Of a stretch of DNA of 33,748 bases, positions 1-29,125 are shown in pieces; position 1 is the stretch's first letter; each line of letters begins with the position of its first letter. The notes under the pieces are model-generated. The model saw only the letters and a program-made list of their open reading frames with translations. It had not been told where the DNA came from and ran no database searches. The position numbers were made by a program, and so were the translations under genes. This DNA is from a virus (Duplodnaviria > Heunggongvirae > Uroviricota > Caudoviricetes), in the IMG/VR virus record IMGVR_UViG_2718218139_000002. One strand, 5' to 3'.

Positions 1-177
1 ATGGAAAAAGATCTGAAAGCGTTGCGGGAATACCTGTTACTCTCCCCTGACTATCCTGAAGTTAACGATTCTCTGGCTAATTTCTCAACTGAAGACATGA
101 CCAACGAAGAGATAGCGGAACGTTTGGGAATTGCTCCAGATTGGATGGAAACCGTAGACCCCAGCAAACTTACCTGA
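1..177 (+). CDS. Small ORF at window edge (58 codons), unknown function; may be the 3' end of a longer upstream gene
   Basis: Open frame from position 1 to TGA at 175-177, followed directly by a GC-rich hairpin; no family recognised. Confidence 0.3.
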   Translation: MEKDLKALREYLLLSPDYPEVNDSLANFSTEDMTNEEIAERLGIAPDWMETVDPSKLT

Positions 178-178
178 T

Positions 179-212
179 GCAGAACGCGCCTTTGCTGGGC
201 GCGTTTCTTAGT
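179..212 (+). terminator. Candidate rho-independent terminator after the edge ORF
   Basis: Inverted repeat GAACGCGCC / GGCGCGTTTC around 183-208 followed by a T-rich stretch. Confidence 0.45.
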
Positions 213-262
213 CTTACATATGGCTGTTAATAGCTCAATACAGATGAGATTAGCCCTGCCAT

Positions 263-291
263 TTGACTATAAGTATCTTACACCGGATAAT
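263..291 (+). promoter_or_regulatory. Candidate sigma70 promoter for the two-gene operon
   Basis: TTGACT at 263-268, 17-bp spacer, GATAAT at 286-291, about 110 bp upstream of the first gene. Confidence 0.3.
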
Positions 292-402
292 TCGTGCGTA
301 AAAAGTGTTCAAACATATGATTCTTGATTTTGTTTGCCACCATAGTAAGCATTTTTATGTTGCATGTAGAGATGAGAAGGCAGGTATCACTTGATTGATA
401 TA

Positions 403-2868
403 ATGAAGGTTTGGCTTATTTCTCAAAAGTGGTTCTGGAAATTAAGAACAGATCTTGTGAGGGTTAGATTTATTTTAGAACGTGCGTCATACATACATCG
501 TACGTCTGTTTTTAAAGCTAAGTCTAACGCTCATGTTTTTATGTCTTTTGCGTTGGTAGGTTTAAAAAATTTGTTATGGGTCATATTAACGTTATTTGCA
601 CTGGGTTTTGTTGAAGATTATATTCGGAATAATACGATTTTGCTTCATCCTCTTAGCTATGATGAAAAAAAATTTAATATTGATCAACTTAGGTTGTACG
701 CACAGATACTTACCGCTATATTTTCAATATACTTTGCTACAATAGGTATCATTCTAAGTGCAGGATATACCAGACTTCGGCGAGATATTATACAAATGCT
801 TACTACCGAGCAGGTAGGTAATGTGTATTCGCGGACTTTAGTGCTTTCTGCGGTGTTTTGTCTTAGTGCAACTGCTCTCCACTTGTTCGGGGTTGAACCC
901 GGTCTTTTCGTTTATGCAATGGGAACATTGCTGACACTTGTTAGTTCCTTAGCTCTGTTCCCATTAGGTCAAAGATTATTCAATTTTTTTGACCTAAATC
1001 AGTTAGCCCGAAGTGAAATACTCCCACGAATTGCACGACACATCGAAGGTGCGTCTAATCCCAAGAATTCAGTATCTTTAGCTAATCATCACTCTAAAGC
1101 CGCACATTTGGCCTTTGAGCAGTTAAACTACATTGATGATCGCCTGATATGTGAAAAAGTAGGACTCGGAGATAATTTACCTGCTCTCAGTAATGTTTAT
1201 TCGGCATTACTTCTTCATTACCTTAATCAGAAACACAGAATTGATTATCAAAGTTACTGGTTCCCTAGACGAATAAAACATAAGCAATGGTTCTTAGCTG
1301 GCGACAGTGTAACATCCATTGCTTTAAAAACAAGGAGCCAATTAACGGTTGAAGAAGAACCAAATTATCTTTGGTTAGAGAATGAAATTATCAATAGGTT
1401 GGTAGGCCATATTGAACTTGCATTCAAAGCCGGTGATTTCAAGCTCGGGTTGGATCTCATCAGTCTATTCTCATCTCGTATATTAACTTATGCACAACAG
1501 TTTCAGTTCGATATTGGTATACGTGAACTTCGGAAAATGAAGACGATCATTGAAAAAGCCTTTACACCGTCTGATGTCGTTAATTATTTTGAGGAAAAGG
1601 TGATAAAAGTTGGAATTGCGGATGCATGGGCTGCATTAGGCAGCAATCTTTGCCTTGAAATGTTACGCCGCATGATTACTTTTGAGAAAGAATTGGAGCA
1701 GTTCTTTAAAGATGATATCTGGACAGAGACCTCTCTACACACTTTGCCTGCTTTTCTGCAGGTTGAGTTGGCCTTTATCGTAGAACGTATCGAATTCGAA
1801 AAAGAGATTGAAGGACAGAGATTATCCAAACCAAAGTACGTCCAGCAGTTGGCGGTTCAGAAGTTATTACAACAATATTCTAAAATTCTGCCAGAAGTAT
1901 GCGATTTTCACGTAAACATGGTTCCAGATTTCGTTAACTCACTGATAAACATGAAGATGCCGGAAGCCGCAACGCAAGTCGTTCTCGCTAGCCTACATAA
2001 TCATTTGAAGTTTCCCCATTGGTTTAATGAACTTTCTCTGCTCTTGGAGAGATACAGAAAGTACGAGCACTACTCTGAAAAGCTATACGCATTACCAGAA
2101 ATTAATATTGCTGAAATGCTCAAACAGTTTGTCGTTACACAGGATGAAGCTATAGCTATTCTTGGTAGGGAGGAAATTGTGGGACATATCATTGAACAAG
2201 AGCAAGATGATGAACTACCGGATCATTTGGGACAGATATATTTTGAGTTGGCTGAGGAATGTATACATGCGCTTGAACAGAATGATGAAAATAAACTGAG
2301 CAAGGTATTCCCTATGTTCATGGTTCTCTCATTGCTGGCATCAGATACTAAATTTGTAGATCCGAAACTCGATATAAACAACGAGTTTCGACTGCATCTC
2401 CTTTCATCCGCGATCAACGATCTGATGTCAGTTCTAGGTTTTGCTATCCTTTACAGTGCTTATTTCGATAATGCAAAACTATCTAAAACAGTACTTGATA
2501 GGTTTAAGTCTTGGCTCGAGTCTGTTCCCAACAAACAGCAGTATTTGAAGAGAATGATGATTCTTTCAAATCCGCGCAATTTCAGCTTGTGCGCATCACC
2601 GAGAGATATGATTCGTCTTAACTGGAAAATGGAATTTGAGCGCCGCGCAAGACATGATGGCTTTAGCGATCAAATGGGAATGAATCGAGGGAAATCTCAT
2701 ACGAACAAAGTTGTCAGAGAGTTCTTAAACTCCCATTCAGATGCATCGCATCTCTTTTGTGCTCTCGAAATTTTCCCGCAACTCGAGCAAATTGACTTCA
2801 AGATCGATTACCATGTTAGTGAGTTGGCTCGTCGTTTTGGCGTGGAATACGATAAGGATTTTGAATGA
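403..2868 (+). CDS. Large membrane protein, four predicted N-terminal TM helices plus a roughly 630-aa soluble domain; no recognisable family
   Basis: Long ORF 391-2868 (TTG at 391, first ATG at 403; start uncertain). Hydrophobic segments FMSFALVGLKNLLWVILTLFALGFV, LYAQILTAIFSIYFATIGIILSAGY, VLSAVFCLSATALHLFGV, LFVYAMGTLLTLVSSLALFPLG. AT-rich relative to phage genes. Stop overlaps the next start (ATGA). Confidence 0.6.
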   Translation: MKVWLISQKWFWKLRTDLVRVRFILERASYIHRTSVFKAKSNAHVFMSFALVGLKNLLWVILTLFALGFVEDYIRNNTILLHPLSYDEKKFNIDQLRLYAQILTAIFSIYFATIGIILSAGYTRLRRDIIQMLTTEQVGNVYSRTLVLSAVFCLSATALHLFGVEPGLFVYAMGTLLTLVSSLALFPLGQRLFNFFDLNQLARSEILPRIARHIEGASNPKNSVSLANHHSKAAHLAFEQLNYIDDRLICEKVGLGDNLPALSNVYSALLLHYLNQKHRIDYQSYWFPRRIKHKQWFLAGDSVTSIALKTRSQLTVEEEPNYLWLENEIINRLVGHIELAFKAGDFKLGLDLISLFSSRILTYAQQFQFDIGIRELRKMKTIIEKAFTPSDVVNYFEEKVIKVGIADAWAALGSNLCLEMLRRMITFEKELEQFFKDDIWTETSLHTLPAFLQVELAFIVERIEFEKEIEGQRLSKPKYVQQLAVQKLLQQYSKILPEVCDFHVNMVPDFVNSLINMKMPEAATQVVLASLHNHLKFPHWFNELSLLLERYRKYEHYSEKLYALPEINIAEMLKQFVVTQDEAIAILGREEIVGHIIEQEQDDELPDHLGQIYFELAEECIHALEQNDENKLSKVFPMFMVLSLLASDTKFVDPKLDINNEFRLHLLSSAINDLMSVLGFAILYSAYFDNAKLSKTVLDRFKSWLESVPNKQQYLKRMMILSNPRNFSLCASPRDMIRLNWKMEFERRARHDGFSDQMGMNRGKSHTNKVVREFLNSHSDASHLFCALEIFPQLEQIDFKIDYHVSELARRFGVEYDKDFE

Positions 2869-3857
2869 AAATTATCAAGAATATACCCCTTTACGGTTAT
2901 AGCGTCGATCCTGAGCAATTAAGTTTTGTTGATAGACTATTGACCAAGTCTAAGAATGAACGACCAGGTTTCTATCAAAGGATGTTTTATGAGGATTTTG
3001 CTAGAGTTTTTAATTTTGTAAATCACGGTGATACCAATTTGTTTCAAATCGAAACTAACGACGAAGAACTCATACGTAAAATGTTTGGAAATTTACAAGC
3101 TAGATATAGGAAATACTCGGTAGATGAAACAATACGTGAATTGGTGGAGGCAGTAGCGCAATCGTTGATTTGGCAAGGAACGGCATACTATTTTGTTCAA
3201 AACGTTTCTGAGCAAGAAAAAATACATATTACTCCTCTCGTTTCTGATAATATATTTTGTTTTTTTTCAGTGTATTTTCAGTATGTGCCGAAACGGTGTG
3301 AAAGATATTTAGAACGGGATCATGAGATGCTTCCAAGAGAATTAAGAATCTTGGATAAAAACAAACTAATGCGTTTCGAAATTCCTAGGTCCTTAAGGCA
3401 GATGTTGTCTGAACAAAATCGGACTTTAAAGATCATTGACAAGCATCAATTTGGTGTTACTAATTTTTATCCTCAAGCAACATACGAAAATCCTAACCCG
3501 AAAAGTCACTTTGATTTTAGCATTTGGAAAAATACGCAAGAGCAAGCATTATTCCGAGCTACGAGGAAAACCGGGTGGAATGGTAGAAATTATGATTCAT
3601 CAAAATGTTCTGATTTCTTCCATTACTATCGTCTTATTCGATTTAGACGGAATCAACTTATTTTACGTGATTATATATTGTTGCAATTAGGTAAAGAGCT
3701 CACAAGGGTAGGTCACCGATATAATGAGGACTTTAATGTTGTGATTTCACCAACAAGTGTTTTGCCTCAAATCGATAAACTAGATGAGATGGAATCATTA
3801 CTTTCTAGGGAGGAAATAGATTTTACTGAGGTGTCGGATTACTATTACGAACGTTGA
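2865..3857 (+). CDS. 330-aa soluble hypothetical protein, partner of the membrane protein
   Basis: ATG at 2865 overlaps the upstream TGA (2866-2868), indicating translational coupling; AT-rich; no motif recognised. Confidence 0.6.
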   Translation: MKIIKNIPLYGYSVDPEQLSFVDRLLTKSKNERPGFYQRMFYEDFARVFNFVNHGDTNLFQIETNDEELIRKMFGNLQARYRKYSVDETIRELVEAVAQSLIWQGTAYYFVQNVSEQEKIHITPLVSDNIFCFFSVYFQYVPKRCERYLERDHEMLPRELRILDKNKLMRFEIPRSLRQMLSEQNRTLKIIDKHQFGVTNFYPQATYENPNPKSHFDFSIWKNTQEQALFRATRKTGWNGRNYDSSKCSDFFHYYRLIRFRRNQLILRDYILLQLGKELTRVGHRYNEDFNVVISPTSVLPQIDKLDEMESLLSREEIDFTEVSDYYYER

Positions 3858-3980
3858 GCTTAGAAAAGTAACTATCGAACATTTAACACTATCATTTCGT
3901 TTCAATCTGGAGACTTATGGTGAACGTGCCCAAATTTCGCTCAGAGCAGACTGTCAGATTCAATCGTACCTTTTAAGTTG

Positions 3981-4011
3981 ATAACGCAATTTTGCGTTAT
4001 GCTTGTTTTTT
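3981..4011 (+). terminator. Candidate rho-independent terminator of the two-gene operon
   Basis: Palindrome ATAACGCAA..TTGCGTTAT (3981-4000) followed by GCTTGTTTTTT. Confidence 0.45.
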
Positions 4012-4648
4012 GGATGGGGATATATTTATCTCATTGATTTATATATAAATATAACGTTTATGTTGTTAGTCGTGCACGGTAAAGTTCTAGTATATGTCTC
4101 AGAATCTTCTTCAATACCTCAGGTATATTAAATGGTTAAAAGATAAAAAGCCTTTCAGAGTCGTGCTTACGCGCTCAAATTTCATGGTTGGGGATTTATA
4201 CGTGTATTCAACCCAAAAAGTGACTGAAAAAGTGCTTACAGAGTGACGTTACGTTGACGTTGTTTTCTGGTGATTTTTGCTCAGTAGTTGTTATTATATG
4301 TTTGATTATTATATATATTTTTAATATGTTGCTCACTTCAAACTCACGTCAACTCACTCTTATAGAGTGATTAATTTCTATAAGTACTTTATCTCAAAAT
4401 TTGATTTTTACGGATGGAAGCCCTTCAAAGAAACGTCATTTTTTTCTAAGACTTTGATCTTTCGTTAACGGTGTTAGTGGGGACTTCGGTCATCGAGTGC
4501 GATGCGCTCTTCTGACCGTTTCAATGGATAGGTTCGCCTTCTTGCGCCTCTCGCGGCGCTTGCCGCGCTCCGCGCTTTTGGCGATTGGGCAGGGATATTT
4601 CTCTTATATTGGTCGTTTTTTGCTCTGCCTTGTCACGATCTGTCACTA

Positions 4649-4900
4649 CTAGTAGTAATGGTCATAACCTCCGCTTTCTCTTCTGGCTCTGGATGCTCTC
4701 ACTCGTGCTTTTCTTAACATCCTTAACAGCGGGTGGGTTTGTACTTTGTTCGAGTTTATTGTCTGTGAGGATAGTAACTCCCTGCGCTCTGTCTCTGCCT
4801 CTTTGGTGACCGCTATCACTGATAAATCCCAATCGTGTTTGCTAATTAACGGTGCTTGGAACGGGGTGATTGGTGAGCGATTTATGTCTTGTCGTTTCAA
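4649..4900 (-). CDS. ORF occupying the N-gene position downstream of nutL; not recognisably an N antiterminator
   Basis: 83-codon ORF with TTG start lying 16 nt after a lambda-like AGGAGAATCCAG ribosome-binding stretch; arginine-rich segment RMLRKARVRASRARR is near the C-terminus rather than the N-terminus. Confidence 0.2.
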   Translation of the reverse strand: MKRQDINRSPITPFQAPLISKHDWDLSVIAVTKEAETERRELLSSQTINSNKVQTHPLLRMLRKARVRASRARRESGGYDHYY

Positions 4901-5020
4901 TGTACGCTGTCTGGATTCTCCTGTCAGTTAGCTTTGAGTAACGCGCCGTGATGCTTATCTCCACGGTTGCTGTCTTGCAGCTGCATTTCGCGCTACTCAA
5001 AGCCTTCTGCTTTGAATGCT

Positions 5021-5052
5021 GCCCTTCTTCAGGGCTAAATTTTTAAGAGCAT
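5021..5052 (-). promoter_or_regulatory. nutL: nutL (boxA plus boxB) N-utilisation site, lambda-type
   Basis: Minus strand reads TGCTCTTAAAAATTTAGCCCTGAAGAAGGGC: boxB hairpin GCCCTGAAGAAGGGC as I recall for lambda nutL, boxA one mismatch from CGCTCTTA. Confidence 0.7.
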
Positions 5053-5090
5053 CACCTTCATGGTGGTTAGTACGTCCTGCTGATGGCTAA

Positions 5091-5119
5091 ATAGTACGAT
5101 TTGTACTTTATCGAGTCAA
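5091..5119 (-). promoter_or_regulatory. pL: pL-like early-left promoter
   Basis: Minus strand TTGACT (5114-5119), 17-bp spacer, TACTAT (5091-5096), positioned upstream of nutL as in lambda; spacer holds palindrome AGTACAAATCGTACT. Confidence 0.55.
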
Positions 5120-5180
5120 TACAAAATGTTCTAAATATAATTAGTTTTTTATAACGCTTTGTATTTAATGGGTTTATATT

Positions 5181-5214
5181 TTGGAAAAAGAAAACCCGAC
5201 GCTAAGGTCGGGTT
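5181..5214 (-). terminator. Terminator downstream of the repressor gene
   Basis: Hairpin AACCCGAC-GCTAAG-GTCGGGTT (5193-5214); on the minus strand it is followed by TTTTCTTTTTCC. Confidence 0.55.
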
Positions 5215-5244
5215 ATTGTTGTGTGTTTTAGAGTTGTGAGGCTG

Positions 5245-5904
5245 TTAACTAAATGTCTCTTCAGGCCACTGGCTGGCGATAACTTTCCCTACTACGGAAC
5301 AGCTATCATTGCATGGAATCATTGGATATTGCGGGTTTAGTGGCTGTAGGAACACCTGACCGCTATCCCTGATCAGTTTCTTGAAGGTAAACTCGTCACC
5401 ACCAAGTCTGGCTATGCAGAAATCACCTGGCTCAACAGCCTGCTCAGGGTCAACGAGAATTAACATCCCGTCAGGAAAGCTTGGCTTTGATCCTGTTGGC
5501 GCGGTCATGGAATTACCTTCAACTTCAAGCCAAAACGCACAATCACTGGCTTTTTTGGTTGTGCTGACCCATCTCTCCGCATCACCTTTGGTAAAGGTTC
5601 TAAGCTCAGGCGAGAACATCCCGGCCTGAACATGAGAAAAAACAGGGTACTCATATTGTTTTTTAACGGGGGCAGATGAGTATTCGCCAACAGGTGAAAA
5701 TGTACCGTCGTGGTTGAATGAGACGTTATCAATACTAAGGTATTTAAACACCACACCAATCTCGTCAAGAGATGGATGACGAGATCCGCGCAACCAGTGA
5801 CCAATTCCACCCTGCGTCATACCAAGCTCTTCAGCTAACTTCTCTTGAGTTATGCCGAGCTCTTTCATTCTGGATCTAGCCAGTTCATACCATTTCATTT
5901 TCAT
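5245..5904 (-). CDS. cI: CI-type prophage repressor: HTH N-terminal domain plus LexA-like S24 autocleavage domain
   Basis: C-terminal half ([22 protein letters not shown]...GNSMTAP...FTFKKL...ASQWPEETF) matches lambda cI as recalled; N-terminal HTH domain differs. ORF extends to 5946; start placed at the MKMKWYEL methionine, alternatives at 5946 and 5940. Confidence 0.85.
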
Positions 5905-6015
5905 ACCCTTATTATTACGCTCTGTACTAAAACCATCCATGCACAAGATGTATTTTTTGTTTGCATTCTAAAAGTGCATATCGTATTATTGTTTCATGGT
6001 TACTATGGAGGGCAT
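5905..6015. promoter_or_regulatory. Divergent immunity control region (pRM/pR and operators)
   Basis: Intergenic region between divergent repressor and cro-like genes; candidate rightward promoter TTGCAT (5961-5966), 17 bp, TATTAT (5984-5989); GGAGGG ribosome-binding site at 6007-6012. Confidence 0.5.
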
Positions 6016-6222
6016 ATGAGCAACCTACGAAAATATCGAGAGTCACTGAATATCTCTCAAACAACACTTGCTAAGGCAGTTGGATGCACACAGGGAGCTA
6101 TCGGACATTGGGAATCTGGTCGTCGCTTCCCAGACCTTAAAACATGCCGTGCTCTTGTTGAGTGCCTAAAGCGGTATATGACGAGAACAGTAGCGCCGCG
6201 CCATTTGCTGAAATCATCGTGA
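6016..6222 (+). CDS. cro: Cro-like HTH regulator, C-terminus probably altered by a deletion fusion
   Basis: First gene rightward of the operator region; HTH segment [25 protein letters not shown]; the last 17 or so codons run into the helicase-remnant sequence. Confidence 0.55.
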
Positions 6223-6377
6223 CGAAAAACCGTTTTGGCTCGCTTGGTACGGTTTACCAGCGGTTCTGCAACGGACACTTTGTTGCATGTGACCAGGATG
6301 AAGCCAGACAGATTTGCACAGAATCAAATGCACCTGCTGCGCGTGGCAGACGATATGCACAAGGGGCGGACGTATGA
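6195..6377 (+). pseudogene. 3' remnant of a DnaB-type replicative helicase gene (P22 gene 12 position)
   Basis: Translation [36 protein letters not shown] resembles the extreme C-terminus of DnaB-family helicases; no upstream helicase body or O-like initiator gene present. Confidence 0.5.
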
Positions 6378-6402
6378 CCATCTACATCACTGAGCTAATA
6401 AC

Positions 6403-6433
6403 AGGCCTGCTGGTAATCGCAGGCCTTTTTATT
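6403..6433 (+). terminator. tR2-like rho-independent terminator
   Basis: AGGCCTGC-TGGTAATC-GCAGGCCT followed by TTTTTATTT. Confidence 0.7.
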
Positions 6434-6449
6434 TGGGGGAGAGTAAATC

Positions 6450-6656
6450 GTGGTTGAGTTGATTTTTTCTGCATTGAGGATTCTCGGTGCTATGTGGATG
6501 GTGTCGACGTTCATTGCGGTTGTCGGAAGTTTTGTCCGGTTGGTAGGCGAAGGTAAAGACCTGGTGGGTGTGCTGTTCGGTAGCATTCTCCTGTGGGTGA
6601 TTATCGGTGTTGCGCCTGTCGCTGTAGCAAAAATGGCGTGGCGTTTTGTGAGTTGA
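6450..6656 (+). CDS. Small hydrophobic protein (about 2 TM), nin-region ORF
   Basis: GTG start with GGGGGAGAG ribosome-binding site; very hydrophobic 68-aa product. Confidence 0.4.
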   Translation: MVELIFSALRILGAMWMVSTFIAVVGSFVRLVGEGKDLVGVLFGSILLWVIIGVAPVAVAKMAWRFVS

Positions 6657-6663
6657 GGTGACA

Positions 6664-7110
6664 ATGAAGCAAATATACATGCTTCGCAACGAAGCAATCA
6701 GAAACAACGCCATAGACGCAATACTCTCACTTCCGATCGACGACAAGTCACCTCACGAAGTCCACATTAAAGAACCAAAGCGGAGCAATCCTCAAAACCG
6801 CCTTATGTGGGCGTTATTGCAGGACGTATCACGTCAGGTGCTTTGGCATGGACAGAGACTTGCGCCGGAGGACTGGAAAGACCTGTTCACTGCCCTGTGG
6901 CTTAAGACCAAAAAACTGGAGCAACGAAGTGTGCCTGGTATCGATGGTGGCGTTGTCATGCTTGGCGTGCGTACCAGCAAAATGCGAAAGGCCAGCATGA
7001 CTGAGCTTATCGAAATCATGTTTTGGTTCGGCTCAGAGCGCAACGTGCGGTGGAGTGATGACTCCCGGCGAGAGTATGAATGGTCACAACGAAAAGGTAG
7101 GGCTGCATGA
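6664..7110 (+). CDS. ninB: NinB recombination protein
   Basis: Clear similarity to lambda NinB as recalled (SNPQNRLMWALLQDVSRQVLWHGQRL; C-terminal [20 protein letters not shown]); ATG at 6664 after GAGGTG. Confidence 0.85.
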   Translation: MKQIYMLRNEAIRNNAIDAILSLPIDDKSPHEVHIKEPKRSNPQNRLMWALLQDVSRQVLWHGQRLAPEDWKDLFTALWLKTKKLEQRSVPGIDGGVVMLGVRTSKMRKASMTELIEIMFWFGSERNVRWSDDSRREYEWSQRKGRAA

Positions 7111-7634
7111 CTATCAAATCAAATACACCAGCACACGACAAGGACTGCTGGCAAACGCCGCTTTGGCTTTTTGATGCGCTGGATATTGAGTTTGGATTCT
7201 GGCTGGATTCAGCTGCGAGCGACAAAAATGCTCTGTGCGCTCACTGGCTAACTGAGGCCGACGACGCACTCAATTCTGAGTGGATAAGCCACGGTGCAAT
7301 CTGGAATAACCCACCGTACAGCAATATCAGGCCGTGGGTGGAAAAAGCCGCTGAGCAGTGCATACAACAGCGACAGACGGTAGTGATGCTTGTGCCAGAG
7401 GATATGTCTGTCGGATGGTTCAGCAAGGCTCTGGAGAGTGTTGACGAAGTTCGCATTATCACTGATGGACGGATTAATTTTATCGAACCATCGACAGGGC
7501 TGGAGAAGAAGGGAAACAGTAAAGGCTCCATGCTGCTGATTTGGCGACCGTTCATCAGTCCTCGACGGATGTTTACTACCGTATCCAAAGCGGCATTGAT
7601 GGCGATCGGGCAGGGCGTCAGGAGGGCGGCATGA
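7107..7634 (+). CDS. Phage DNA N6-adenine methyltransferase (Dam-type)
   Basis: NPPY catalytic motif (IWNNPPYSN); start overlaps the ninB stop. Confidence 0.8.
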
Positions 7635-7813
7635 GGCGACAGCGACGAAGTTTCACCGACATCATCTGCGAAAACTGCAAATACCTTCCAACGAAACGCT
7701 CCAGAAATAAACGCAAGCCAATCCCAAAAGAATCTGACGTAAAAACCTTCAATTACACGGCTCACCTGTGGGATATCCGGTGGCTAAGACATCGTGCGAG
7801 GAAAACAAGGTGA
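7631..7813 (+). CDS. ninE: NinE
   Basis: [60 protein letters not shown] is near-identical to lambda NinE as recalled; AGGAGGG ribosome-binding site; start overlaps previous stop. Confidence 0.85.
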
Positions 7814-8316
7814 TTGACTAAAATCGAAGTTACGAACAAGAAAGCGTCGAGCGGGCTTCAGTGTACACTGAGTGGATTCTATCTAGGCTTAGTGCATACA
7901 GAAGATTGCTGGTAAAGGACATGCCAGGCAAAACGATGAGGACTGATATTTATGAAAACATCTGATTTTTTACTGTTCTTGCATGCGGTACAGGAGGGGC
8001 TTTGACCGGGCATTTTATCGTGAATATTTTCACTTGGTATTTCTTTGGTTTTAGAGATTACTTCACTCGATGGGTTTTAAATAGTTTTCGTCGGTTTATC
8101 GGGTGCAAGCCTGATATGAGAATTTATAAAGATGAAAAGAATTGATTGTTAATGTGTTATGAGGTTTTTTGTTGTGAGTTTGTAATTTGCTTTTATAGAA
8201 ATACATTAAGTAAATATAATTAAATATTCAAATTGTATATGTATGCGACATGTTGGTGTTTGGTCGCATACACTGTTGAATATTTGGCTAATGTTATATC
8301 AATGTAGAGTTAAAGT

Positions 8317-19419: not shown

Positions 19420-19440
19420 TGGGGCTTCGGCCCCATTTTT
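19420..19440 (+). terminator. Rho-independent terminator after the coat gene
   Basis: TGGGGC-TTCG-GCCCCA followed by TTTTTATT. Confidence 0.7.
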
Positions 19441-19623
19441 ATTGGGAGAAGACAATGGCACGAACAATGCTCTATAAGCCAGGCAACATGATCACCTGCG
19501 GTCAGTTTGCTGTCGATTACATCATTGTTGATGACTAAGAAGTTAAATCTCACCTGAAAAAAGGTTGGGTAAAAACTCCTGAAGAAACCGCAACGAAGCA
19601 AAAAGTGGCTAAGGCGGAAGAAG

Positions 19624-20085
19624 ATGGCGAAAACGAAGGGTAATCTCGTTCTAAAGGCTTTACGAAAAGCTGGGCTGTATTCCAATGCCACGTTGACAGA
19701 TGCTGACCCTCAGGCAATTGAAGATGCCATTAATGACCTCGAAGACATGATGGCAGCATGGCAGGCGAAAGGTATCGAGCTTGGGTATCAGTTTGCTGAT
19801 ACAGAAAACGGCATCATGCCGTTACCTGACGATGATTCAGGTATCCCTGCATGGGCAAATGATGGCGTCGCTTTGAAGCTCGCTGTGCAAGTGTGCATGG
19901 ATAACGTCATTCAGCCGTCAGACGCTCTCCTTACCGCTGCTGACAGTGCATATCAGACAATCTGCATCGCTTTAACCAAAATACCACCACTTGAGCGGCG
20001 AAATGACATGCCTCGCGGTAGTGGTAACAAAAGCGCGTTTACGTGGAATCGGTTTTACATCGAGAAAGATGATCCGAGTACGTGA
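19624..20085 (+). CDS. gp4: Tail accessory / head-completion protein (P22 gp4-like)
   Basis: Position after coat; similarity to P22 gp4 as recalled (KGNLVLKALRKAGL..ATLTD..PQ...DLE.MMA.W). Confidence 0.75.
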   Translation: MAKTKGNLVLKALRKAGLYSNATLTDADPQAIEDAINDLEDMMAAWQAKGIELGYQFADTENGIMPLPDDDSGIPAWANDGVALKLAVQVCMDNVIQPSDALLTAADSAYQTICIALTKIPPLERRNDMPRGSGNKSAFTWNRFYIEKDDPST

Positions 20086-20094
20086 GGTGAATAA

Positions 20095-21513
20095 ATGCCG
20101 ATTCAGCAACTTCCGCTTATGAAAGGTGTCGGCAAAGACTTTCGAAACGCCGACTATATCGACTATCTGCCAGTGAATATGCTGGCTACACCCAAAGAAA
20201 TACTCAACAGCAGCGGATATCTTCGCTCATTCCCGGGCATTGCCAAACGCTCCGATGTAAACGGTGTATCGCGCGGAGTCGAGTACAACATGGCGCAGAG
20301 TGCTGTTTATCGCGTGTGCGGGGGCAAGCTGTATAAGGGCGAAAGCGAAGTCGGTGACGTCGCCGGAAGTGGTCGCGTATCAATGGCGCATGGTCGAACA
20401 TCACAGGCGGTAGGCGTTAATGGTCAACTGGTCGAGTATCGCTATGATGGTACGGTTAAAACCGTCTCAAACTGGCCTACAGACAGTAGATTCACTCAGT
20501 ATGAGTTAGGCTCAGTCCGCGACATTACGCGCTTACGTGGGCGTTATGCGTGGTCAAAAGACGGTACTGATTCATGGTTTATCACTGACCTTGAAGACGA
20601 ATCACATCCTGACCGATACAGCGCACAATATCGCGCAGAATCTCAGCCGGACGGCATCATCGGAATCGGAACATGGCGAGACTTCATCGTCTGCTTTGGT
20701 TCATCGACGATTGAATATTTTTCCCTGACAGGTGCAACCACCGTTGGTGCCGCTTTGTATGTCGCACAGCCATCACTGATGGTGCAGAAAGGCATTGCCG
20801 GAACTTACTGCAAAACGCCGTTTGCTGATTCGTATGCATTTATCAGCAATCCGGCAACGGGTGCGCCATCTGTATACATCATCGGCTCCGGTCAGGTGTC
20901 ACCAATCGCCAGCGCGAGCATTGAGAAAATACTACGCTCCTACACTGCTGATGAACTGGCTGATGGCGTGATGGAATCGTTGCGGTTTGATGCTCATGAG
21001 TTGCTGATTATCCACCTTCCTCGCCATGTTCTCGTGTACGACGCATCTTCAAGCGCCAATGGTCCGCAATGGTGTGTGTTGAAAACTGGCTTGTATGACG
21101 ATGTGTACCGCGCTATCGACTTCATTTACGAAGGCAATCAGATAACGTGCGGCGATAAGCTGGAATCCGTGACCGGGAAATTGCAGTTCGATATCAGCAG
21201 CCAGTACGACAAGCAGCAGGAACACCTGCTGTTTACTCCGTTGTTCAAAGCGGATAACGCCAGAGTTTTCGACCTTGAAGTTGAATCGTCAACTGGAGTT
21301 GCGCAGTATGCTGACCGCCTTTTTCTCTCTGCAACCACTGACGGCATCAATTACGGGCGTGAGCAGATGATTGAGCAGAATGAACCGTTCGTTTACGACA
21401 AACGCGTTTTGTGGAAGCGTGTCGGGCGAATAAGGAAAAATGTCGGATTCAAATTGCGCGTTATCACGAAGTCACCTGTCACTCTGTCTGGCGCTCAGAT
21501 AAGGATTGAGTAA
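20095..21513 (+). CDS. gp10: Tail accessory protein (P22 gp10-like)
   Basis: 472 aa, near-identical to P22 gp10 as recalled ([16 protein letters not shown]...[32 protein letters not shown]). Confidence 0.85.
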
Positions 21514-22361
21514 TGGCGGATTCGAATCTCAATGTGCCGGTAATCATTCAGGCTACACGGCTCGACACATCAGTTCTTCCACGCAATATCTTCTCGCAGT
21601 CGTATCTGCTTTACGTTATCGCACAGGGCACTGATGTTGGTAACGTGGCTAACAAGGCCAACGAGGCCGGACAGGGCGCTTATGATGCACAAGTCAGGAA
21701 CGATGAGCAGGATGTGATTCTCGCTGACCATGAGCAGCGAATTTCTGCTGCGGAAGCAACACTTGTTAATCATGAGGAGCGAATCAGCCAGGCAGAATCA
21801 ACTCTTCAGGAACATGAAACGCGAATCGCTCAGAATGAAAGCGATATTGCGTCGCTTGATACCAGAGTTCAGTCGCTGGAATCGCAGGTTTCAGACCATG
21901 AATCGCGCATTGATGCTCTGGAGTATGCCACTACTCGCAAGAAGTCAGAGATTGTTTACTCTGGCGTATCTGTAACTATTCCGACAGCGCCTACTAACCT
22001 TGTTAGCCTGCTGAAAACGCTCACGCCGTCATCCGGAACGTTGGCACCATTCTTCGACACTGTTAACAACAAGATGGTTGTTTTCAACGAGAACAAAACC
22101 CTGTTATTCAAGCTGTCGATTGTCGGGACGTGGCCCAGCGGAACCGCTAACAGATCAATGCAGCTAACGTTTTCCGGCTCTGTTCCTGACACACTTGTGA
22201 GCAGTCGTAATGCGGCGACAACAACCGATAACATCCTGTTAGCTACGTTCTTCAGCGTGGATAAAGACGGCTTTCTTGCCACAAATGGCAGTACGTTAAC
22301 CATTCAGTCAAATGGGGCGGCGTTTACTGCCACAACCATCAAGATAATCGCGGAGCAGTAA
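21513..22361 (+). CDS. gp26: Tail needle (P22 gp26-like N-terminus, Sf6-type extended C-terminal knob)
   Basis: N-terminus [43 protein letters not shown] matches P22 gp26; heptad coiled-coil middle; C-terminal roughly 130 aa differ from P22 and the length (282 aa) matches Sf6-type needles. Confidence 0.8.
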
Positions 22362-22816
22362 TGATTCAGTTCAAACCAACGCGAAACATCGACCTGATCG
22401 AAGCAGTCGGAAATCACCCTGACATTATTGCCGGAAGCAACAACGGTGATGGATACGAATACAAGCCTGAATGCCGTTACTTTGAGGTGAACGTGCACGG
22501 TCAGTTTGGCGGCATTGTTTACTATCAGGAGATTCAGCCGCTGACATTCGATTGCCACGCCATGTACCTGCCAGAGATTCGCGGCTTCAGCAAGGAAATC
22601 GGGCTGGCGTTCTGGCGATACATTCTGACTAACACCACCGTTCAGTGCGTCACATCGTTCGCTGCACGCAAATTCCGCCACGGTCAGATGTATTGCGCAA
22701 TGATTGGCCTTAATCGTGTAGGAACCATCAAGAAATACTTCAAAGGCGTGGATGACGTGACGTTTTACAGCGCCACACGCGAAGAACTAATCGACTTCCT
22801 GAATCACGGGAGATAG
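22361..22816 (+). CDS. gp14: Ejection/assembly protein (P22 gp14 position)
   Basis: Gene order between tail needle and gp7; start overlaps upstream stop; sequence not recalled independently. Confidence 0.55.
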   Translation: MIQFKPTRNIDLIEAVGNHPDIIAGSNNGDGYEYKPECRYFEVNVHGQFGGIVYYQEIQPLTFDCHAMYLPEIRGFSKEIGLAFWRYILTNTTVQCVTSFAARKFRHGQMYCAMIGLNRVGTIKKYFKGVDDVTFYSATREELIDFLNHGR

Positions 22817-22818
22817 CC

Positions 22819-23508
22819 ATGTTATATGCATTTAATCTGGGCAGAAAACTGCGCGGAGAGGAACCTTATTGCCCTGAAAAAGGCGGCAAAGGTGGCTCCG
22901 ATAAAAGCGCAAAGTATGCAGCAGAAGCCCAGAAGTATGCCGCAGACCTGCAAAATCAGCAGTTCAACACCATCATGAACAACCTGAAGCCGTTTACTCC
23001 TCTGGCTGATAAGTATGTCGGCAGCCTCGAGAACTTATCGTCTCTGGAAGGGCAAGGTCAGGCACTTAACCAGTATTACAACTCTCAGCAGTACAAAGAT
23101 CTTGCTGGTCAGGCTCGCTATCAGAGTCTGGCGGCAGCGGAAGCAACAGGTGGATTGGGTTCCACCGCAACCAGTAATCAGTTAGCAACAATCGCACCAA
23201 CGCTTGGTCAGCAATGGCTATCTGGTCAGATGAACAACTACCAGAATCTGGCAAATATTGGTCTTGGCGCACTGCAAGGTCAGGCAAACGCCGGGCAGAC
23301 ATATGCCAACAACATGAGTCAGATTTCGCAGCAAAGTGCGGCTCTTGCAGCGGCAAATGCCAACAGACCATCAGCAATGCAATCTGCTATTGGCGGAGGT
23401 GCGTCTGGTGCTATTGCTGGGGCTGGACTTGCGAAATTAATTGGTTCATCAACTCCGTGGGGGGCTGCGATCGGCGGCGGTCTTGGTCTACTTGGCTCGT
23501 TGTTTTAA
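22819..23508 (+). CDS. gp7: Ejection protein gp7
   Basis: Near-identical to P22 gp7 as recalled (MLYAFNLGRKLRGEEP...GGGLGLLGSLF). Confidence 0.85.
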   Translation: MLYAFNLGRKLRGEEPYCPEKGGKGGSDKSAKYAAEAQKYAADLQNQQFNTIMNNLKPFTPLADKYVGSLENLSSLEGQGQALNQYYNSQQYKDLAGQARYQSLAAAEATGGLGSTATSNQLATIAPTLGQQWLSGQMNNYQNLANIGLGALQGQANAGQTYANNMSQISQQSAALAAANANRPSAMQSAIGGGASGAIAGAGLAKLIGSSTPWGAAIGGGLGLLGSLF

Positions 23509-23517
23509 GGGGTAATC

Positions 23518-24933
23518 ATGGCTACGTGGCAACAGGGTATTAATTCTGGTGGTTTTCTGGCTGGCATCGGTACGCAAAATGAGAATGCGCCAAAGGCAAG
23601 CGACATTAACGCAACGCTTGGTCTGATCCGCGAAAACAATGAACTGGCTCGCTCAGGTGCAAATAACGTTGGTCTGACCGCGTTACGTGGTCTGGCTGGA
23701 GTTGCTGATATTTACAATCAGGAACAGCAACAGAAAGCGATTAGTGCGTTCAATAAGGTTCATGCTGATGCATGGGCTTCTGGTGATCCATCGGGACTAT
23801 TTAAGTTTGCCCAGGAAAATCCAGCGTTTGTTGCACAGGCACAACAGGCGTTTTCCGGTCTTAATGAGCAGCAACGCAACGATATGGGCGATTTAGCCAT
23901 GAGGGCTAACGTCGCTCTTTCTCAGGGACCGGAAGCCTACAGTAAATTCATTACTGACAACAAGGACAGGTTAAATCGCGTTGGCGCTAATGCTGACTGG
24001 ATGATTCAGACAGGTATCCAGAATCCAGAGCAGCTATCACACATGCTGACTACTATGTCTCTCGGTGCGCTTGGACCAGAAAAGGCGTTTGCTGTTCAGG
24101 ACAAGATGGCTGGTCGTGAGATTGACCGAGGCAGACTGGCAGAGACAATCCGCAGCAATCAGGCTGGAGAAGCACTTCAGGCGAGAGGGCAAAACCTTTC
24201 CTATCAGTCAGCAATGACTGGACACAATATCGCAGCACAACGCTTGGCTCTGGATCAGCAAGAGTTCGGATTTAAGATGCAGCAAGCGCAGGAAAAGGCT
24301 CAGCAGTTGATTAGCGAAGCACCTAAGCTGTCAGTAAACATGGAAAAAGGCATCGAGACGGCTGTAAACAATGCCACAGCATCATCAAACTCAGCCAATT
24401 CCATGAGTGCGCTTGCTCAACAGTTCAGAGCAGAAAAACCAACGACAGGTTTGTTCGGTAACGCACAGAACATGTTCGCAAAACTTACCGGAAGCGATAC
24501 GACATTGCGTGATTTGCGCATTCGCCAAAATGCCCTTGTTAACAGTCAGGTTCTTAAATTCCTACCTCCCGGCCCAGCAACTGATAAAGACGTTGAGATC
24601 GTTCGACAGGGTGCGCCAACTGACATGGATAACCCTGAGACGGTCGCAAGATGGCTTGATGCAATGGCAAACCTTGAGCGACGAAACGCGCAGTTTAATG
24701 AGTTTAAAGCCGAGTGGATGAGCGCGAATGGCAACTCTGGACAATCGCGTAATGGCGGTCAGATATTGGGGTTGGATGTTAAAAAAGGTGAATCATTGGG
24801 GAGTGCCGTTAAGCGGTATATGTCAATGAATACTGACGCAGCGCCAGCACAAGATTCGACACCTTCAGGAAAACCACGTAATCAGGTTGGATCATATACC
24901 TCAAAATCAGGCATTCAATTTACGGTGGAATGA
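23518..24933 (+). CDS. gp20: Ejection protein gp20
   Basis: 471 aa, the P22 gp20 size as recalled, in the conserved position. Confidence 0.75.
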
Positions 24934-26771
24934 TGAAAGTAACTGCAAACGGTAAGACATTTACCTTCCCTGATGGTACGAGCACGGAAGATATTGGAGC
25001 CGCCATTGATGAGTATTTTGCTGGTCAGGTTGTTCAGCAACAAACAGTTAATCAGGCCAATAATGCACCAGTACGTGAAGACCCATCATTGATGCAACAA
25101 GCTGGCGATTGGCTCACTGGTGGTCAAAGTGCAGGGCAAATTGCAGAACAGGCTGGTCGTGGTCTGGTAAACATACCATTTGACGTATTGCAGGGTGGCG
25201 CAAGTCTGATTAATGCAATCAGTCAGGGGCTTGGAGGGCCAAAAGTTTTGGATGATGTTTATCGTCCAGTAGACAGACCGACAGACCCATACGCACAAGC
25301 CGGTGAAACAATTGGCGGGTATTTAGTTCCAGGAGTTGGAACGGCAGGAAGCATGGCTATTGGATCACTGGCAGAGGCCGCAAATCAGAAAGGTGATTTC
25401 GCACAAAATGCAGCTAAAAATGCCGGAGTTAACCTTGCCGCTCAGGGTGTTCTTTCCGCAGCAGCAAAGGGAATAGGGCGTGGAATAACGGCTATAAAAG
25501 GTGATATTGCGCCAGAAGTGGCGAAGAAAATAGCCACATCAGAATCGATGGGCGTGACACCAATGACATCTGATGTTATCCCGCCGAAAAATGCTTTCAC
25601 TCGCGGACTTACTCAGGATGCCGAGGGGGCTTTGCTCGGGACGGGCTCAAAGCGAGCAGAGCAATATGCAACGCGTAGTAAGCTGGTAAGCAATTATTTT
25701 GACCGTTTTGGTGAGTACAACCCTGATGATGTGGTGAAATCTCTGACCACCACGTTAAGGGGGCGGAAGGATGCTGCTGGCGCTGTTATCAATGACGTCA
25801 CCAATAAAATGGGTAATGCCGCAGTTGATACCACAAATACCATGAATGCTCTGAATACAGCGATCGCAAGACAGGAACGACTTGGGACGTCTGCCAATCA
25901 AAGCCTGCTTACATCCTTGCGTAACCTACGTGAAGAATTAGCAAACCCTGCAACTGATTTGGATGTTACGTTTGATCTCTTGCGTCAGCACAGAACAGCA
26001 TTTAGATCTAATGTTCAGGGAGATGCTATGGTCTTCCCCAACCAGGCAAAAGCAGCTACCAATATGGTAGAGAATGCAATGTCAAAAGACCTTCGTAACG
26101 CAGTTGCTAAAAACCTCGGTGCTTCAGACGCAGCAAAATACCTTAAAGCAAATTCCGATTATGCAAACGTTTATAATAAGGTGCTTAATAAAAACATTGC
26201 TAACAAACTCAACAAGGCAAGCAGTGAAGCCAGCCCTGAACTTATAAATACTGTTGTATTAAGCAGAAAACCATCTGACGTGAAACGAATCTGGAGCGCA
26301 CTGGATGATAAAGGGAAAGATGCTATGCGTGCAGCTTACATCAGCAAAATAGCGGAAAAGGCCGGTGACTCTCCAGCCAAGTTCATCACTGAAGTTAATA
26401 AGCTGAAATCTCAGTCAGGCGGTGAAATTTACAACACTATTTTTTCTGGAAAGCACATGAAAGAGCTTGATTCTCTTCATGAAGTTCTACAGCAAACAGC
26501 AAGGTCAGACACCGCAAATGTAGTAACTCAGACGGGGCAATCGCAAGCCAACCGGATAAGGACGATTGGCGCAACTGCGACTCTTGGCGTATCAATGGGG
26601 CTTGAGGCTGGCTTTGGTGCAATGATGCGTTTGTATGAGTCTAAAGCAGCAAGAAACATGCTTCTCCGCCTTGCAAACGTCAAGCCTGGAACTCCGGCAT
26701 ATGAGCGAGCGTTAAATCAGGCTGCTAACGCCGTTCGCCCTCTCCTAACTAACGAAGCTACCAGGCAGTAG
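24930..26771 (+). CDS. gp16: Ejection protein gp16
   Basis: 613 aa, close to the P22 gp16 size as recalled, in the conserved position; start overlaps the gp20 stop. Confidence 0.75.
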
Positions 26772-26790
26772 AAATGAACGCCAAGGAAGG

Positions 26791-27120
26791 CTATTTAATT
26801 CTCTTTTCAATGGCTGCAATTATTGCTTTTCCTGATGTTTCAGGAGATTTTGTAGCCATATAAGACGAAAAAATCATGTCGGTCATTCTTTCATAACTTA
26901 CTATTTCCCACTTAGCCAATGCATGGGACAGTTTGTAGTTGTCATCAGTTAGTGCCCTTATGGAATTTTTTAAGTGTTTATTCTCTTCTGTTAATCGCGC
27001 AATTTTTGTATCAATTTCATGTGAGCGATCTAATTCCTTAACCTGTTTCTTGAGGGCAGCTAACCCTGCATATAGTACGCAACAGGATATCCCAAGAGCG
27101 AGTACGACTATTTCTAACAC
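26791..27120 (-). CDS. Small membrane-anchored coiled-coil protein (sieA-region cargo)
   Basis: GTG start with AAGGAGG 6 nt upstream; N-terminal TM helix LEIVVLALGISCCVLYAGLAAL followed by heptad-rich region. Confidence 0.5.
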   Translation of the reverse strand: MLEIVVLALGISCCVLYAGLAALKKQVKELDRSHEIDTKIARLTEENKHLKNSIRALTDDNYKLSHALAKWEIVSYERMTDMIFSSYMATKSPETSGKAIIAAIEKRIK

Positions 27121-27238
27121 ACCAACCTCCTTAGTTTTTCGCAGGATACCATGAAAAAAGTAAACATCTTTTGCCTACTTCACATTTGAATGGTTTGTCA
27201 TTAGGATGTTTCCGGTTTTTTCAAATATGGAAATTGAT

Positions 27239-27658
27239 ATGAAGAGGATTATCGGCGTTGTTGCTGGCGCTATATTGTTATCTGGGTGCGCAACTATTGT
27301 TGGTGACGAAACACAGCTCGTGCAAGTGAACAGCAATCCTTCCGGTGCGAGCTTTAAAGTAAAAGACGAATCAGGCGTGATTGTTGCGCAAGGCAAGACC
27401 CCGCAAGGAGTAACTCTTGCCAAGTCAGATGGTAGTTATTTTGGCAAAAAGAGCTACCAGATCACTATGGAAAAGGATGGGTACGAACCAGTTACCCTGC
27501 CAATCAAAGCCAATGCTAATGGTTGGTATATTGGTGGAAACCTTGTGTTTGGTGGGTTAATTGGTTGGCTTGCTGTAGATCCTTTTAATGGTGGGATGTA
27601 TACCTTGAAGCCAAAAGAGGCAAACGCATCTCTTATACCATCAACAAAGCAAGACTAA
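27239..27658 (+). CDS. Lipoprotein (signal peptide with lipobox LLSGC), PEGA-like beta domain
   Basis: MKRIIGVVAGAILLSGC lipoprotein signal; remainder is beta-rich with G/W-rich C-terminus; start could also be the ATG at 27227. Confidence 0.65.
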   Translation: MKRIIGVVAGAILLSGCATIVGDETQLVQVNSNPSGASFKVKDESGVIVAQGKTPQGVTLAKSDGSYFGKKSYQITMEKDGYEPVTLPIKANANGWYIGGNLVFGGLIGWLAVDPFNGGMYTLKPKEANASLIPSTKQD

Positions 27659-27665
27659 TAAATAG

Positions 27666-27690
27666 GACCCACCTTCAGGTGGGTTTTTTG
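27666..27690 (+). terminator. Terminator after the lipoprotein gene (overlaps the mnt stop)
   Basis: ACCCACCT-TCAG-GTGGGT followed by TTTTTTG. Confidence 0.6.
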
Positions 27691-27926
27691 TACAAATCCT
27701 TCAGCGTATCAAACACCATCTTCTTAACAAGCTCTGACTGCTCATCAGCGAGTCGTTCTGCATCGTCGCGATATCCAGTCACAGGCGATGGTTTTGATAG
27801 AGCATCTTGGACGATTTGTAACAACTCGGAGTTCATTGATCTCCCATTCGCCTCCGCCCTGAATTTTAATTTCTCCCTTACTTCCATAGGCATACGGAAG
27901 TTAAAGTGCGGATCATCTCTAGCCAT
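27675..27926 (-). CDS. mnt: Mnt repressor (ribbon-helix-helix)
   Basis: Near-identical to P22 Mnt as recalled (MARDDPHFNFRMPMEVREKLKFRAEANGRSMNSELLQIVQDAL...). Confidence 0.9.
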   Translation of the reverse strand: MARDDPHFNFRMPMEVREKLKFRAEANGRSMNSELLQIVQDALSKPSPVTGYRDDAERLADEQSELVKKMVFDTLKDLYKKPT

Positions 27927-27948
27927 GCCATCACTCCAAGTTAGTGTA

Positions 27949-28000
27949 TTGACATGATAGAAGCACTCTACTATATTCTCAATAGGTCCACGGTGGACCT
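27949..28000. promoter_or_regulatory. immI control region: Pant with arc operator and mnt operator
   Basis: TTGACA (27949-27954), 17 bp containing ATGATAGAAGCACTCTACTAT (arc operator as recalled), TATATT (27972-27977); perfect 17-bp palindrome AGGTCCACGGTGGACCT at 27984-28000. Confidence 0.7.
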
Positions 28001-28016
28001 ATATTGTGAGGTGAAT

Positions 28017-28178
28017 ATGAAAGGAATGAGCAAGATGCCGCAGTTCAATTTGCGGTGGCCTAAAGAAGTATTGGATTTGGTACGCAAGGTGGCGGAAGAG
28101 AATGGTCGGTCTGTTAACTCTGAGATTTATCAGAGAGTAATGGAAAGCTTTAAGAAGGAAGGGCGCATTGGCGCGTAA
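28017..28178 (+). CDS. arc: Arc repressor (ribbon-helix-helix)
   Basis: [53 protein letters not shown] matches P22 Arc as recalled. Confidence 0.9.
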
Positions 28179-28246
28179 AGTTGAAGCCCCAACTGCGGGA
28201 ACAGTCAGGGCTTCGGTATCAACAAATCGGATTAGGAAATATTGAC

Positions 28247-29125
28247 ATGAAAAGTATAGCAAAGGCACAAAACGATTTCACCATCTTCAAATTCGGCGAC
28301 AGTGAAATCCGCGTCATCAACAAATGCGGTGAGCCGTGGTTTGTAGCAAAAGATGTTTGTGATGCTTTAACCCTGACTAACTCACGCAAGGCGCTTACTG
28401 CACTTGATGACGATGAAAAGGGAGTAACTTTAAGTTACACCCTTGGTGGTGAGCAGAATCTAAGCATTGTTAGCGAATCAGGTATGTATACATTGGTTCT
28501 GCGCTGCCGCGATGCTGTCAATAAAGGTTCGGTCCCGCACAAATTCCGCAAGTGGGTAACAGCAGAAGTTCTACCTTCAATTCGCAAACATGGCGAGTAT
28601 GTGAAAGGCAAGAAAACCACTGTTGAGGAAAGAACGCCGCTACGCGATGCAGTAAACATGCTGGTAGGAAAGAAAGGACTTCGCTATGACGATGCATACA
28701 ATATGGTTCATCAGCGTTTTGGTATTGACAGCATTGATGAACTTTCAATTGAACAAATCCCGCTGGCCGTAGAGTACATCCACAGGGTAGTGCTTGAAGG
28801 CGAGTTTATCGGCAAACAAGAGAAGAAAGCAAACGAGCTTTCTGCAAAAGAAGCAAACAGCCTTGTATGGCTATGGGATTATGCTAACCGTTCACAGGCA
28901 TTATTCCGCGAACTGTATCCGGCATTAAAACAAATTCAATCGAACTATTCCGGCAGATGCTACGACTACGGTCATGAATTCTCGTATGTTATCGGAATGG
29001 CGAGAGACGTTTTAATAAACCACACACGAGATGTTGATATTAATGAGCCAGACGGACCAGCGAATCTTTCCGCATGGATGAGACTTAAGAATAAAGAATT
29101 ACCTCCTTCAGTACATAACTACTGA
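28247..29125 (+). CDS. ant: Antirepressor Ant (Bro-N domain)
   Basis: Follows arc; AGGAA ribosome-binding site before ATG at 28247; Bro-N-like N-terminal domain ([28 protein letters not shown]). Confidence 0.75.

Follow-up and report, generated by a model that had tools for sequence, protein, structure and literature searches.

Downstream of the leftward promoter pL, phage lambda carries nutL, comprising boxA and the boxB hairpin, and then the ribosome-binding stretch of gene N. Near-identical copies of this region are found in phages Dewey, mEp332, HK542 and SfI, and proteins of the lambda N family present an arginine-rich motif at the N-terminus. In HK022, the N position is instead occupied by Nun, a protein that terminates transcription at lambda nut sites and whose own arginine-rich motif is also N-terminal. 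In terms of chromosomal location, the closest described element is KplE1 (CPS-53) at argW, with which the prophage considered here shares the site, the attachment core and a layout in which int, with its own promoter, lies beside argW (PMC2951348). KplE1 has lost its cI module, yet retains the TorI xis and attR and can still be excised (PMC2951348). More generally, cryptic lambdoid prophages of E. coli and Shigella decay through internal deletions and the action of IS elements, as is also seen below. Finally, HUH replication initiators are encoded both by small plasmids and by a small island found at argW.

The stretch of DNA analysed here (the window; 33,748 nucleotides of IMG/VR virus record IMGVR_UViG_2718218139_000002) brings these systems together. 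We consider it very probable that the feature of interest is the scar of a deletion, located in a P22-like prophage that has decayed, and that it joins pL, nutL and the N ribosome-binding site directly to the tail of the rep gene of a neighboring island. The elements on either side of the scar are as follows:

5091-5119, minus strand: sigma-70 promoter of the pL type (-35 TTGACT at 5119-5114, 17-nt spacer, -10 TACTAT at 5096-5091; consensus scan)
5051-5043, minus strand: nutL boxA TGCTCTTAA (alignment; CGCTCTTAA in lambda, GGCTCTTAA in Dewey)
5035-5021, minus strand: nutL boxB hairpin GCCCTGAAGAAGGGC (15 of 15 bases as in lambda nutL)
4922-4911, minus strand: orphan N ribosome-binding stretch AGGAGAATCCAG (the same as directly upstream of the N ATG in lambda and Dewey)
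4909-4911, unstranded: deletion junction (G4911, last phage-only base; A4910, shared base; C4909, first island-only base)
4649-4909, minus strand: 3' remnant of the island rolling-circle Rep gene (codons 265-350 and the stop codon)

Scanning, alignment and folding bore out the preliminary description in that the minus strand contains a pL-like promoter and a nutL with the lambda boxB, followed by a lambda-like N ribosome-binding stretch from which the N start codon is missing. The transcription start, A5084, was assigned by alignment with lambda pL, in which the -10 and +1 positions line up, and from this base onward the leader matches the lambda pL transcript base for base. The pL region is 99% identical to that of phage Dewey, with operator-like inverted repeats containing TTTGTATT and AATACAAA flanking pL at 5118-5165; with respect to immunity type, promoter and operators correspond to Dewey and not to lambda. 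While boxA shares eight of nine bases with its lambda counterpart, boxB, the conservation of which had been proposed as a check, is unchanged at every position, folds as expected for lambda nutL, with a stem of 5 bp and a GAAGA loop, and lies at the lambda distance from boxA, so that a lambda-type nut site is present downstream of pL. This boxB occurs once in the window, where shuffled sequences are expected to give 0.00 matches, and a search of the whole window for a second boxB (nutR) returned none. The stretch CAAAGCTAACTGACAGGAGAATCCAG that precedes the N ATG in lambda is also present, and it is only at the N start position, which reads ATGGATGCACAA in lambda and Dewey and ACAGCGTACATTG in the window, that ATG gives way to ACA. 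The N coding sequence and everything downstream, found in lambda and in Dewey-type phages, are missing from the window. Because the 341 bases on the cI side (5250-4910) are 97-99% identical to known N-bearing phages, this similarity reflects homology rather than chance.

The point at which this homology ends was defined to the base. Megablast comparison of positions 5250-4400 with 50,697 phage records matched 52 phages, the best being Dewey, phi458, mEp332, HK542 and SfI at 96-99% identity, with several of the matched phages carrying annotated nutL boxA/boxB and N. All of the phage alignments that reached the ribosome-binding site ended at query base 341, namely, window position 4910, which is aligned with Dewey 27504, the first base of the annotated Dewey N coding sequence. 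Here, the phage homology (Dewey 27504-28764; 99.3%) abuts homology to an island in E. coli MIN14 (locus positions 12001-16909; 99.6%), with no intervening or duplicated sequence where the two meet. In a three-way comparison, Dewey reads ...GGAGAATCCAG A TGGATGCA, the island reads ...GCGACAGAT A CAGCGTACATTG and the window reads ...GGAGAATCCAG A CAGCGTACATTG, such that A4910, being both the A of the N ATG and a base of the island rep gene, provides the only microhomology, of 1 nt. A 26-mer spanning this N::rep junction is present in all five loci fetched by way of the chimeric Cro protein described below; these come from independent NCBI assemblies, lie on contigs of 0.25-1.4 Mb and are 99.86-100% identical to window positions 1-16222. 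The same 26-mer was absent from GTDB representative genomes and JGI metagenome contigs, and no record spanning both halves was found among the phage records or the complete E. coli RefSeq genomes, the known spread of the junction being confined to draft assemblies.

Beyond the junction, an 83-codon ORF with a TTG start and an arginine-rich C-terminus was confirmed at 4649-4900 (minus strand), ending ...RMLRKARVRASRARRESGGYDHYY; it is the longest in the region, although not the only one, as had been stated, since shorter ORFs of 56, 52 and 41 aa lie in other frames. The window translation QRTLKRQDINRSP...GGYDHYY* matches residues 265-350 of the 350-aa Rep of E. coli MIN14 at 85 of 86 positions (E 1e-60), that is, the C-terminus of a protein of the PF23343 family. 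From 4909 on, the reading frame is that of Rep, with the TTG, the first start-like codon, corresponding to residue 268, and the 83-aa ORF hence to Rep residues 268-350. The arginine-rich stretch is accordingly the native C-terminal tail of Rep. The sole Pfam domain of Rep, PF23343 (REP_ORF2-G2P), spans residues 85-143 and falls outside the ORF, which lacks the Rep/HUH nuclease domain and for which a Pfam and NCBIfam scan gave no match. Distant Rep homologues from small Klebsiella and Enterobacter plasmids align over approximately residues 31-290; as compared to a full HUH Rep, the stub, while an authentic 3' end of such a gene, retains residues 265-350 and has lost almost all of the plasmid-shared region. 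A PDB sequence search with full-length Rep returned nothing informative. What directly follows the N ribosome-binding site is not a translatable gene but ACA and a distant TTG, the ORF having no ATG and the TTG at 4900 lying 17 nt from the GGAG Shine-Dalgarno sequence. Indeed, gene callers placed no gene between the 330-aa gene and cI in any of the five assemblies. Because the stub lacks the HUH catalytic domain and offers only this TTG as a start candidate, it is most likely untranslated and functionless.

The rep remnant belongs to the right-hand part of a small island, the other end of whose insertion site lies at the far side of the prophage:

1-4910, unstranded: right-hand part of the argW island (rep remnant, approximately 790-bp non-coding region, cargo operon on the plus strand, small ORF)
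391-2868 and 2865-3857, plus strand: cargo operon of two overlapping genes (825 aa and 330 aa; island annotation)
31347-32504, minus strand: prophage integrase of the KplE1/HK620/Sf6 type (Pfam; 96.5% identical to Dewey int)
32665-32680, unstranded: attL core CTGCAGGGGAC(G)CCAT, inside tRNA-Arg(CCT) at 32666-32740, minus strand (tRNA scan and four-way alignment)

In MIN14, the island is found at tRNA-Arg (argW), between yfdC and dsdC, and comprises, in order, int, five small genes, one of which encodes an HTH/AlpA-like regulator, and the gene for the 350-aa Rep; after a non-coding interval of approximately 790 bp come two convergent genes, for products of 330 and 821 aa, then an ORF of 58 aa and the gene for a resolvase. 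Window positions 1-4910 correspond to MIN14 locus positions 16909-12001 (99.6% identity over 4910 bp), and window positions 32665-33748 correspond to positions 7696-6613, containing tRNA-Arg and yfdC. Because both ends match in this way, the left 4.3 kb of the island, from int through Rep codon 264, must be missing, with the prophage occupying window positions 4911-32664 in its stead. Positions 4910-3900 had matches in 1185 of the 5426 complete E. coli genomes (1190 records; identity of up to 99.7%), with the match covering the 3' end of a coding sequence labelled 'rolling circle replication-associated protein' or 'replication protein'. The stretch 3900-4910, into which the final 40 nt of the 330-aa gene extend, is conserved at ~99% in many complete E. 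coli genomes; the cargo operon itself was present in the two genomes examined, MIN14 and strain 98224. Searches of the 825- and 330-aa cargo proteins against Pfam, NCBIfam, PADLOC and PDB sequences gave no informative match, and the fact that they are carried by a small integrative island suggests an accessory role that is as yet uncharacterised, possibly in defence. The AT-rich non-coding DNA at 3858-4648 (~790 bp), which separates the cargo operon from the stop codon of Rep, is conserved with the island and could hold its replication origin or promoters. An Rfam search of the whole window matched only sar RNA and tRNA, with nothing detected at 3858-4648 or in the pL-N region.

At the opposite end, the integrase gene abuts argW and is transcribed away from it. 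A four-way alignment of the window attL, the Dewey attP, the MIN14 attL and a junction from E. coli strain 98224 revealed the common core CTGCAGGGGACACCAT, with the phage attP being located between int and xis; an identical 16-nt core and the same int orientation have been published for KplE1 (PMC2951348). The window core, CTGCAGGGGACGCCAT, differs by a single A-to-G change from those of Dewey, MIN14 and strain 98224 and from the one published for KplE1; the altered position is apparently the discriminator base that precedes the CCA end of argW. In the same alignment, the window contributes an argW/phage-int junction and strain 98224 a hybrid junction between phage xis and island int, the latter missing from the window. 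Indeed, strain 98224 contains the undeleted tandem in the same order and orientation: a phage part with cro, cI, N, kil, RecT and a TorI-like xis (then attR), followed by an island part with int, an AlpA-family regulator, a replication protein and the convergent 330- and 825-aa genes. The cI of this prophage differs from that of the window. At 8512-8871 of the 98224 locus, the annotation pipeline labels N as 'incomplete, missing N-terminus', which may reflect a start-codon annotation problem or an independent lesion.

Since both flanks of the junction have the same orientation, a deletion, rather than an inversion or insertion, is indicated, and a single deletion from the N start to mid-rep turns the strain 98224 layout into that of the window. 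In the sequence of events favored here, a P22-like phage of lambda-type N/nut specificity, with an int-attP-xis module of the KplE1/HK620/Sf6 type, would have integrated at argW beside the resident small island. The ancestral order would then have been yfdC, argW, phage int, tail and head genes, cro, cI, pL, nutL, N, the pL operon, xis and attR, with island int, rep and cargo following attR. One illegitimate-recombination event at 1 nt of microhomology would have removed everything from the second base of the N ATG through rep codon 264, so that cI and pL remained intact, nutL and the N ribosome-binding site were orphaned and only a C-terminal stub of Rep, in frame but lacking a start, was left. 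Because no immediate ancestor (same immunity type, intact N, island in tandem) was recovered among the genomes searched, the size of the deletion is an estimate from relatives, namely, ~11.5 kb when based on strain 98224 and ~8.9 plus 4.3 kb when based on Dewey and MIN14, or ~11-13 kb overall. N had been described as replaced; N is gone, yet rather than being exchanged for another gene, it was lost together with the DNA extending through xis and attR into island rep.

At least four inactivating lesions, including that at N, are present in this prophage, which is P22-like, as judged by a head-binding tailspike, an immI-region sar RNA and extensive similarity to Dewey. The immunity genes beside pL are as follows:

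5245-5940, minus strand: intact cI-type repressor gene (HTH_3 and Peptidase_S24 by Pfam; 99.3% nucleotide identity to Dewey 27839-28534)
5193-5214, minus strand: terminator hairpin located after cI (terminator scan)
6016-6222, plus strand: chimeric Cro of 68 aa (5' part of cro, with the terminal ~210 nt of a DnaB-like helicase gene attached at 6169/6170)

Similarity to Dewey stops inside cro at 6170, and from 6169 the sequence matches the 3' end of the large gene found after O in Stx-type phages, which is the replicative helicase gene, judging from its position and the reading of its translated tail; the cro-helicase fusion is out of frame. This arrangement points to a second deletion (cro::helicase) that took nutR, cII, O and most of the helicase gene. 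Exact-sequence lookup of the chimeric Cro led to NCBI assembly contigs, with the protein being found in 52 blocks of the collection, and it offers a handy exact-match marker for the lineage. Further along, IS600 (IS3 family) lies at ~14210-15490, after the holin gene, with the scaffold gene next at 15996; the space between the two contains neither a terminase gene (small or large) nor a portal gene, suggesting an IS-associated deletion. A second IS3-family element (~17337-18595) splits the major head protein (coat) gene into 16908-17348 and 18520-19413, and a fragment of related IS3-family sequence (72% similar) is seen at 10266-10581. With attL present and modules missing or split, the element is a defective (cryptic) prophage at argW. 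Reversed within the nin region, a 590-aa ORF at 8317-10089 (minus strand) has a full-length match to phrog_9230 (unknown function) and none that is informative in Pfam, NCBIfam or PADLOC; it is probably a moron. A 314-aa ORF (28181-29125) is overlapped at its start by the sar antisense RNA, which scored 71.6 bits against Rfam RF00262 and lies at 28179-28245 (minus strand), suggesting a P22-type immI (antirepressor) region.

Several consequences of the deletion can be predicted. With N absent, nutL would be without a partner and N-dependent antitermination would be lost. In the lysogenic state, pL is expected to be repressed; upon SOS cleavage of cI, pL would fire, yet without N the nut RNA should assemble no antitermination complex, and the transcript would enter the essentially untranslated stub, a likely target for Rho. 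An N of lambda specificity supplied in trans could act at nutL were pL derepressed, albeit with nothing phage-derived downstream to switch on. As compared to KplE1, the window prophage has kept cI, pL and most late genes and is locked in place because xis and attR are lost; with island int gone as well, neither prophage nor island should be able to excise, nor would either element be able to replicate. What survives is probably a cryptic prophage that expresses cI and confers immunity.

It could be argued that the fusion has been co-opted, with SOS-induced transcription from pL reading the rep stub, running antisense into the 330/825-aa operon or yielding a Rep C-terminal peptide, making the cargo damage-responsive. 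An intact pL and cI (an S24 peptidase), a terminator scan that detected no intrinsic terminator on the minus strand from 4900 to 3800, and stable inheritance of the structure within the lineage are all in line with such a role. However, a neutral scar would be inherited just as stably, the conservation is seen in one clonal group only, an untranslated transcript made without N is a likely Rho target and the remainder of the prophage displays plain decay, such that co-option is very unlikely. The same holds for the broader proposal that the pL-nutL::'rep fusion has been kept for a function, be it SOS-triggered antisense transcription into the cargo operon or a response of nutL to the N of a superinfecting phage of lambda specificity, to which we likewise assign a very low probability; if true, either option would couple island cargo to phage infection or DNA damage.

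An insertion of the island into N, which would place the remainder of that gene and the pL operon outside the window, is still less probable, indeed extremely so. Such a reading takes advantage of the fact that the window ends within the island, leaving the far side out of view. Yet, the island is itself truncated at the junction, with int through Rep codon 264 missing, and in the five assembly loci the DNA on the far side of the island leads to the resolvase and csc genes, just as it does where islands are uninterrupted, and contains no phage genes. Moreover, phage int abuts argW, as tandem integration predicts.

The preliminary description had left a choice between loss of N antitermination and a divergent N analogue. 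The former is supported, given that the window offers no N, no pL-operon gene and no nutR. In searching for a canonical N that might have been missed in another frame, tblastn of lambda N and Dewey N against the whole window gave nothing below E 0.3, barring nine leader-encoded residues before the ATG, while blastn and tblastx with the entire Dewey pL operon (18654-27503) detected no homologue, so that a cognate N encoded by the same phage is lacking from the window. As to the latter, an 83-codon ORF positioned downstream of nutL and the N ribosome-binding site and containing an arginine-rich stretch would hold the same place as does Nun, and could be imagined as an N analogue or Nun-like factor acting on boxB via its C-terminus. 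That stretch is, however, C-terminal and not N-terminal as in the lambda N family, and in BLASTP the best alignment of the ORF with Dewey N covered 8 residues (E 0.32). Neither blastn in distant mode with window positions 4350-4915 against the 50,697 phage records nor tblastn with full-length Rep against all phage records of the collection yielded a match. Instead, the ORF shares 99% identity with the C-terminal part of a Rep (350 aa) from a nut-less island found in over 1000 E. coli genomes, it lacks an ATG, its TTG is remote from the Shine-Dalgarno sequence, it went uncalled as a gene in the five assemblies and the prophage around it has also lost nutR and all N-dependent early genes. The identity of the ORF with Rep thus excludes the N-analogue reading for practical purposes, its residual probability being negligible.

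Just as negligible is the chance that the junction is an assembly chimera of a prophage contig and an island contig, as might be suspected from its absence from complete E. coli genomes, since the identical junction in five independent NCBI assemblies shows it to be real and inherited, no repeat exists at the junction to mislead an assembler and the two partners are natural neighbors at argW.

The deletion scar described here is a case of tandem mobile elements decaying by deletion at a tRNA hotspot, a well-known and ordinary phenomenon, and not a new antiterminator. For annotation purposes, the locus is to be regarded as the fusion of a truncated neighboring island with a prophage that is locked in and has suffered multiple deletions, with little wider import. 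At the same time, it offers a clean, base-resolved case of one deletion knocking out two tandem mobile elements at argW, and serves as a caution that an ORF found behind a conserved regulatory signal can be a piece of an unrelated gene.
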